From: Escherichia coli
GTDB taxonomy: Bacteria; Pseudomonadota; Gammaproteobacteria; Enterobacterales; Enterobacteriaceae
Reading direction: 5' to 3' (one strand)
Assembly (NCBI RefSeq): GCF_003334255.1
Contig: NZ_QOWU01000144.1
Length of the DNA: 1,877 nt
The position numbers were made by a program, and so were the translations under genes. This document shows positions 879 through 1,301 of the stretch, in pieces (position 1 is the first letter of the stretch; every line of letters starts with the position of its first letter). The notes below the pieces were generated by a model. It was given only the letters and a program-made list of their open reading frames with translations. It was not told where the DNA came from and did not search any database.

Positions 879-1301
879 TTAATCCCACCAACAAGTAACC
901 GGATGCATACCCACAGGGACTTCAACCCATCCATGCTCCGTATCTTCTGACCATCCTTCCCAGCACTCATCAGGGGCAATTTCTTCTACAAACCAGCTCT
1001 GAACTTCTTCTGGTGAAGCAGTGGTGATAACTAAAATACTTTCACTAAAGGGCCAGTCTGGGTCATCGAACATCGTAATTTCTACCAAAACATCACTAAC
1101 ATTGTTACGCTCACGTATTTTCAGAAAATGGTGATAGATAGCTTGCGGAGATTGTTCTGGAATCACATTGCAACATATTGAACCATGGATATTATTGTCA
1201 ATAAAAAAATCCTCAAGAGATAACAATGGACGAGGAGTATCAGGATTATTAACATCACCATTGATATTAACAAGTTGGGTAATGCGTTCTAAAGGTGTCA
1301 T
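879..1301 (-). CDS. Hypothetical small acidic protein, 140 aa from the preferred start (the track ORF extends to 1355, giving 158 aa). Trp-rich C-terminus; function unknown.
   Basis: The ORF track gives 879..1355. The in-frame ATG at 1299..1301 is preceded on the minus strand by AGGGAA (forward 1307..1312) with a 5-nt spacer, whereas the ATGs at 1353..1355 and 1326..1328 have no purine-rich SD. The product from the preferred start begins MTPLERITQLVNINGD and ends CWEGWSEDTEHGWVEVPVGMHPVTCWWD. By hand count it has about 26 Asp/Glu against 5 Lys/Arg. The TAA stop is at 879..881. Confidence 0.75.
   Translation of the reverse strand: MTPLERITQLVNINGDVNNPDTPRPLLSLEDFFIDNNIHGSICCNVIPEQSPQAIYHHFLKIRERNNVSDVLVEITMFDDPDWPFSESILVITTASPEEVQSWFVEEIAPDECWEGWSEDTEHGWVEVPVGMHPVTCWWD

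Follow-up and report, generated by a model that had tools for sequence, protein, structure and literature searches.

The question raised by a 1,877-nt stretch of DNA from an Escherichia coli assembly (GCF_003334255.1, contig NZ_QOWU01000144.1; the whole stretch is referred to as the window) is what the hyper-acidic protein encoded at positions 879-1301, on the minus strand, is for. An initial annotation, made from the letters alone, had described a Trp- and Cys-containing 140-residue product with no recognisable family, and had named DNA-mimic anti-restriction proteins, immunity proteins and some anti-sigma/anti-defence factors as options for its function. The protein is YfbO, which is already catalogued (E. 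coli YfbO, PF27222) yet functionally blank. The best-supported reading, which we hold tentatively, is that of an orphan immunity-type protein that would bind a basic toxin; only circumstantial support for it exists, provided by a minority of the loci at which YfbO and its relatives are found.

YfbO and the family PF27222

The gene and its presumed ribosome-binding site are located as follows:

879-1301, minus strand: yfbO coding sequence, 140 codons plus stop, for a hyper-acidic, Trp-rich alpha+beta protein (from the translation, the RefSeq annotation of identical DNA, the family alignment and an AlphaFold model)
1308-1312, minus strand: Shine-Dalgarno-like AGGGA of moderate strength, 7 nt 5' of the yfbO ATG (read directly from the sequence)

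The open reading frame (ORF) specifies 140 amino acids (aa) with a mass of 16.2 kDa, including 26 Asp/Glu, 5 Lys/Arg, 5 His, 7 Trp and 4 Cys. The composition is as initially annotated, and every motif quoted at that stage is present (FDDPDWPF, EEVQSWFVEE, DECWEGWSEDTEHGW and the C-terminal WWD). The isoelectric point (pI) and the charge distribution, whose calculation had been suggested there, were computed as pI 4.12 and a net charge of -21 across the 140 residues, with the negative charge densest at residues 71-130. The description of the ribosome-binding site as strong overstates it, as AGGGA at a distance of 7 nt from the ATG is moderate; a 93%-identical yfbO allele carries AAGGA at the same position.

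The ORF is 100% identical to RefSeq YfbO of K-12-type E. coli (WP_000188051.1). It is a genuine gene and not a chance ORF, given this identity, 821 clusters in a profile search, homologues of the same length, and a ratio of nonsynonymous to synonymous divergence (dN/dS) of 0.32. Set against K-12 YfbO and PF27222, the window protein is identical in sequence, with the same length, start and conserved motifs, and the differences are nil. Comparison with homologues places the start at 1301 rather than at an upstream ATG at 1355, because the homologue N-termini agree, RefSeq annotates 140 aa, and in a homologue of 69% identity the frame is closed by stop codons shortly before the start; full-length homologues all start with MTPLERIT, and those of 45-60% identity are also 140 aa long.

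Searches of YfbO against local copies of Pfam-A, NCBIfam, PADLOC and PHROGs and against the PDB sequences gave zero matches, and for these collections the initial statement on the lack of a family stands. It does not stand in general, since the protein gives its name to the Pfam family PF27222 ('YfbO'), which the local Pfam-A copy does not contain. The cluster of the query itself bears a precomputed PF27222 label, as do 84 of the 85 homologue clusters listed in a word-seeded search, the exception being a partial match. E. coli YfbO is the founder and name-giver of this recent family, and membership gives it a name without a function. The profile search, which covered 1.84 billion representatives clustered at 50% identity, returned 821 clusters at E<=1e-3 and 521 at E<=1e-10.

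In an alignment of 58 sequences, G15, F33, N36, V68, W83, P84 and P110 are invariant, and W138, W139 and D140 are kept in at least 90%. YfbO fits the family in its length of about 140 aa and in the motifs PLLTLEEFFxGN..GSIxCN, FDDPxWPFSD, PDE.W.GW and a C-terminal CWWD. An invariant Cys/His/Ser catalytic set is not visible in this alignment; Cys44 is near-invariant in close relatives and replaced by Tyr, Ala, Val or Pro in distant ones. For 14 of the 26 acidic positions of YfbO, at least 70% of homologues likewise have an acidic residue, stand-alone members have a median pI of 4.27 and a median net charge of -13, and, as judged from these sequences, hyper-acidity is a conserved trait of the family. 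The two E. coli yfbO alleles differ at 14 residues with the dN/dS of 0.32 given above, the corresponding values in comparable pairs of strains being 0 (nuoN) and 0.035 (yfbM).

An AlphaFold2 model based on the 58-sequence alignment is of the alpha+beta type, with a mean predicted local distance difference test (pLDDT) score of 93.8 and a predicted template modelling (pTM) score of 0.88. Searches of the PDB with this model found no solved structural relative. Foldseek against AFDB50 yielded 77 matches at E<=1e-3, nearly all 'uncharacterized'; the fold was found within a 363-aa protein annotated as SMI1/KNR4 and within a 296-aa TPR protein, and a few relatives are labelled DUF4253 or DUF1963. 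With the SUKH / SMI1-KNR4 superfamily, YfbO shares neither a profile match nor the SUKH fold. An identity with DUF4253 was dropped, as none of about 38 diverse sequences of the YfbO family matched DUF4253 in Pfam-A, and a literature search on DUF4253, yfbM and b2274 found nothing relevant. Because the model and alignment combine conserved aromatic and acidic motifs with no invariant residues of a catalytic type, YfbO is presumably a binding domain rather than an enzyme.

E. coli YfbO has neither a signal peptide nor a transmembrane segment. The family as a whole appears from its sequences to work on both sides of the membrane, since about 30% of its full-length representatives carry N-terminal transmembrane helices or lipoprotein signal peptides. 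Other longer relatives carry soluble N-terminal domains, with P0092, P0172 and P0180 sharing one of about 230 aa and P0154 and P0175 sharing another; N-terminal extensions were observed among representatives P0086-P0228. The N-terminal domains of 23 longer family members had no Pfam match at E<=0.001, and 10 of the 23, all with soluble N-terminal domains, had no NCBIfam match.

Gene neighbourhoods and a possible immunity function

In the interpretation that we consider here, YfbO would be a stand-alone binding protein of the cytoplasm. It would consist of a small alpha+beta domain, strongly acidic and without enzymatic activity, and would use its conserved surface of acidic and aromatic residues (FDDPxWPFSD, PDECWxGW and the C-terminal CWWD) to bind and block a basic toxin domain delivered by competitors. 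The likeliest target would be the nucleic-acid-binding face of a nuclease-type polymorphic toxin, as with barstar or the colicin immunity proteins. In E. coli, its gene shares a variable, H-NS-bound, AT-rich islet with other small genes unrelated to it (yfbP, yfbN and, for some strains, SMI1/KNR4). We infer the binding of a toxin, the identity of this toxin and the binding surface alike.

The observations behind this interpretation come from gene order. Recognised immunity genes lie near YfbO in four independent loci, one of which is the variant islet of E. coli described below. In a genome of 7.8 Mb (L003), genes for an LHH toxin, two SUKH proteins, YfbO and a 103-aa protein follow each other in the same orientation, with a Tox-REase-5 gene nearby. 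In L097, L111 and L112, YfbO stands in a run of mostly co-oriented small genes and is directly followed by DUF2199 and then SMI1_KNR4, and the array of L105 contains a MntA-like nucleotidyltransferase and an Imm1 (PF14430) gene. Co-oriented small genes with short gaps and variable content have been described as 'heterogeneous polyimmunity loci' (Zhang et al. 2012, PMC3482391), and by their gene content the four YfbO loci would fit this pattern. The immunity option of the initial annotation has thereby gained in that four independent loci place YfbO beside recognised immunity genes, in one case by an LHH toxin, while its support is still incomplete. A further array, on the mobilizable plasmid p1 of Priestia megaterium (L022 3780-8992), comprises nine mostly co-oriented small genes beside a recombinase gene, among them a YfbO-like gene, DUF6678, two copies of DUF4304 and several genes for hypothetical proteins; this may represent a polyimmunity-type array of Bacillota that has so far gone unrecognised.

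The neighbourhoods were surveyed at 76 loci outside the E. coli type. A conserved partner gene was sought across all of them, and no neighbour family recurs beyond close synteny; YfbO is therefore without an obligate partner, as would be expected of an orphan cassette rather than of part of a fixed multi-gene system. Likewise, a conserved adjacent toxin partner, as for a type II toxin-antitoxin pair, was not found in the 76 loci, and there are no homologues of YfbP, YfbN, YfbM or YfbL beside distant YfbO genes. A small local SUKH hidden Markov model (HMM) detected no further SUKH neighbours beyond those in L003, L097 and the E. coli variants.

YfbO resembles the immunity proteins of polymorphic toxins (PMC3482391) in its small size, its globular alpha+beta build, its lack of apparent catalytic residues and its conserved C-terminal Trp, in occurring in co-oriented small-gene arrays with SMI1_KNR4, Imm1 and DUF2199, once near an LHH toxin, and in being sporadic, prone to horizontal transfer and accessory within species. 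It differs from them in standing outside the described Imm families, with no HMM match to SUKH or any other local Pfam-A family, in the large share of exported or membrane-anchored family members, and in that yfbO does not lie immediately downstream of a toxin gene, be it in the E. coli islet or in L003. Like YfbO, barstar and the colicin DNase immunity proteins Im7 and Im9 are small and very acidic; they counter a basic nuclease by sitting on or beside the surface with which it binds nucleic acid, and their genes lie directly beside that of their toxin. YfbO shows no similarity to them in sequence or, among the PDB matches listed, in fold, and has no fixed neighbour. In a proteome-chip study (PMC3229523), the cationic peptide lactoferricin B was bound by many proteins, YfbO included, which is weak evidence for an immunity function.

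In E. coli, yfbO was found in 994 of 5426 complete genomes (18%), with 996 of 996 matching places being chromosomal. The three strains lacking yfbO that were inspected all have the order nuoN-yfbM-yfbL, and in K-12-type strains yfbP-yfbO-yfbN is inserted between nuoN and yfbM (L001 5896-8150), with a GC content of 34-44% in the islet versus 52-58% in nuo. A second, rarer islet type has the order nuoN-yfbO (93% nucleotide identity)-yfbN-SMI1/KNR4-yfbM, without yfbP (L023/L043/L044). Between the two types, the synonymous divergence (dS) is 0.72 for yfbN (dN/dS 0.24; L001 7434-8150 compared with L023 4102-4818), 0.16 for yfbO and 0.06 for nuoN; as yfbN is far more diverged than the adjacent yfbO, the islet is a mosaic. 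In a related enterobacterium (L006), yfbO directly follows yfbL, with no yfbM or yfbN in between, on a contig that ends 51 bp past yfbO. Superficieibacter has, at the same site, yfbP and an unannotated gene for 241 aa, similar to yfbN in size, without yfbO or yfbM. Since the content of the site differs among the E. coli types, the related enterobacterium and Superficieibacter, the region between nuoN and yfbL is a hot spot for interchangeable small cassettes, and the islet itself, by composition and distribution, a small, horizontally acquired, accessory one. In a published list, yfbN is H-NS-associated, island-located and SlyA-induced (PMC5797941). As a side observation, a 2.8-kb contig of a metagenome-assembled genome (MAG) labelled 'Bacillota bacterium' (L011, JAEWTL010000023.1) carries a yfbO 100% identical to that of E. 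coli at 40% GC, which is probably E. coli contamination of the bin.

Several findings weigh against the immunity interpretation. Most YfbO loci are housekeeping, miscellaneous or unannotated in content, and the co-oriented small-gene arrays that include recognised immunity families are seen in a minority; among 34 neighbours from 11 loci, none matched a toxin or immunity family of Pfam. A recognisable toxin occurs in only one of about 76 non-E. coli loci (L003), where YfbO is unlikely to be the cognate partner of the LHH toxin because two SUKH genes intervene, and no toxin gene was found in or beside the E. coli islet. The measure for small co-oriented arrays was 0.44, compared to 0.37 in the control, and, depending on a crude ORF caller, is not relied on. 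About 39 of 128 full-length representatives (~30%) have hydrophobic N-termini, 10 of these with a lipobox, and such a share of membrane-anchored proteins and lipoproteins is unusual for a cytoplasmic immunity family. Finally, a simple orphan immunity protein would not predict that deletion of yfbO causes resistance to phage N4, as reported in the literature discussed below.

At two loci, mobile or defence-type genes were observed near the YfbO homologue. In a Cellvibrionaceae MAG (L017 8292-9041), an AbiGi-family gene lies two genes upstream of the YfbO homologue and downstream of a gene for a 1943-aa protein with matches to cadherin, Ig-like and RTX repeats. In L010 (494-1731), two tandem ParE-toxin/antitoxin pairs are located upstream of the YfbO homologue.

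Phage N4 and the alternative explanations

Both yfbO and yfbL were among the top hits for phage resistance in a study of 2025: Keio strains with either gene deleted resisted N4 and became sensitive again when supplied with ASKA plasmids, and the deletions made no difference to seven other phages (preprint 10.1101/2025.09.29.679331). In another study, overexpression of yfbN blocked RcaT, the toxin of retron-Sen2, and yfbO was taken into validation through its linkage to yfbN, being itself below the cut-off (preprint 10.1101/2020.06.22.160242). According to this literature, cloned YfbO can be expressed and removal of yfbO has a phenotype; a mechanism comes from none of these reports.

The phenotype raises the alternative that YfbO, rather than being directed at a toxin, has a physiological role in the host, as a factor or regulator, for example in an envelope or exopolysaccharide pathway needed by N4, possibly together with the M28 peptidase YfbL. 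We regard this as unlikely. The N4 resistance of the yfbO and yfbL deletions is complemented and specific with regard to the seven other phages, and the direct succession of yfbL and yfbO in the related enterobacterium is in line with a connection between the two; however, 82% of complete E. coli genomes lack yfbO, which sits in an acquired, AT-rich islet, and no neighbour, yfbL included, is conserved outside Enterobacteriaceae. The membrane-anchored and lipoprotein relatives (~30%) suggest envelope-linked roles for those relatives, whereas E. coli YfbO lacks the corresponding signal peptide or transmembrane segment, and the phenotype as such comes from a single preprint that proposes no mechanism.

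Two further explanations, both improbable in our view, connect the resistance to the loss of an inhibitor. In the first, YfbO would act, much like an antitoxin, as the inhibitor in a local module shared with YfbN, YfbP or both, such that its loss frees a phage-blocking activity and its overexpression buffers toxins. N4 resistance upon deletion is what would be expected from the loss of an inhibitor, yfbO and yfbP share an orientation, with yfbO 55 nt upstream and divergent from yfbN, and yfbN, to which yfbO is linked, was scored as a blocker of RcaT (10.1101/2020.06.22.160242), although yfbO was below the cut-off of the same screen. The genes are, moreover, separable, as yfbO-yfbN occurs without yfbP, and yfbP with the YfbN-sized 241-aa gene without yfbO; in L006 there is no yfbM or yfbN between yfbO and yfbL (on the contig ending 51 bp past yfbO), and distant YfbO homologues stand alone in most loci. 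In the window, yfbP and yfbN are both broken by IS1 with yfbO intact, and YfbN, YfbO, YfbP and YfbM are without PADLOC match (0 families each at E<=0.1).

In the second, of similarly low probability, YfbO would be a toxin- or effector-binding module of a widespread fold without solved relative, used in the cytoplasm and in exported proteins, which in K-12 restrains an endogenous activity, so that its loss leads to an N4-resistant state. If true, YfbO would be an immunity-like protein wired into phage susceptibility, beyond inter-bacterial competition alone.

The remaining alternative is a DNA mimic of the Ocr/ArdA type, that is, an anti-restriction or anti-defence protein with an acidic surface that stands in for DNA. 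The genes for Ocr (phage T7 gp0.3) and ArdA are found on phages, plasmids and conjugative elements. YfbO shares with them the dense negative charge (net -21 in 140 residues, pI 4.1, acidic family-wide), and differs in being chromosomal, near-absent from phage and plasmid collections, and without a listed match in fold: none of 50,697 phage records matched, 2.9 million viral contigs yielded one locus, and plasmids gave five records only (the Priestia array and one E. coli record identical to chromosomal yfbO), none in a leading-region context, the 996 places in complete E. coli genomes are all chromosomal, and lipoprotein and membrane-anchored relatives cannot meet DNA enzymes, for which reasons we consider a DNA mimic very improbable. 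The DNA-mimic, anti-restriction and anti-defence options of the initial annotation are thus not supported, given the near-absence from phages, viral contigs and plasmids and the ~30% of the family that are membrane-anchored or lipoproteins; the comparison with Ocr and ArdA that it had suggested was carried out, with neither among the fold-search matches listed for the model. The E. coli record in the plasmid collection (CP137936.1 280635-281054, hit H16) is 365 kb in length with a yfbO 100% identical; a piece of the chromosome or a wrongly assigned replicon is a likelier explanation than a genuine copy on a plasmid.

The surroundings of yfbO in the window and implications

The other features of the window, which is part of the E. 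coli chromosome, are the following:

1-77, no strand assigned: IS1 end, terminal 77 nt, with exact matches at L001 9572-9641 and L002 6710-6779 (longest exact match 78 nt)
78-823, minus strand: truncated yfbP, encoding a TPR protein, 55 nt downstream of yfbO and co-oriented with it, with the 3' 106 nt lost to IS1
1302-1509, no strand assigned: AT-rich intergenic region between the divergent yfbO and yfbN, presumably with both promoters
1510-1800, plus strand: 5' fragment of yfbN, the first 97 of 238 codons, followed by IS1
1801-1877, no strand assigned: other IS1 end, terminal 77 nt, with exact matches at L001 8888-8957 and L002 6026-6095 (longest exact match 77 nt)

Many complete genomes have a yfbP-yfbO-yfbN region identical to positions 78-1800. 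Both IS1 junctions cut the flanking genes, yfbP and yfbN, and leave yfbO intact; the ORF of yfbP (56-823) continues for 7 codons into IS1. The two IS1 ends are oriented as in two directly repeated copies or in one copy collapsed in the assembly graph, and none of the 5426 complete E. coli genomes searched has either junction as a single unbroken stretch. The equal 77-nt ends appear to reflect a short-read contig bounded by a collapsed IS1 (overlap of k = 77) or an IS1-flanked segment. Scans of the window for promoters and terminators gave no matches above shuffled expectation; a weak sigma-70-like match is located on the minus strand at 1511-1484.

In the full-length gene (L001 5896-6744), YfbP consists of an N-terminal domain of about 95 aa without family assignment, followed by TPR repeats. 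It belongs to a widespread family of its own, about 280 aa long, with members in Janthinobacterium, Tenacibaculum, Iodobacter and Leminorella, that occurs independently of YfbO. A SUKH-like nature of its N-terminus, suspected by eye, was discarded, as there was no Pfam match on YfbP or in the precomputed domains of its homologues. The N-terminus of YfbN (full gene L001 7434-8150) gave weak UBA-like matches (UBA_4, 0.0032; NAC-type TIGR00264, 2e-4), and its C-terminal ~150 aa are without family assignment.

Should the immunity interpretation prove wrong, the hyper-acidity of YfbO would still be a conserved family trait and no evidence for DNA mimicry. As the confident model has no relative in the PDB, an experimental structure would be likely to reveal a new fold. 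The N4 phenotype, if upheld, ties an accessory islet gene to phage susceptibility and offers an experimental handle. As an orphan immunity protein, for which nuclease-type polymorphic toxins would be the first candidates, YfbO would have a testable functional class, moving one gene of the uncharacterised 'y-ome' of E. coli, and with it a family of about 800 clusters, towards annotation.

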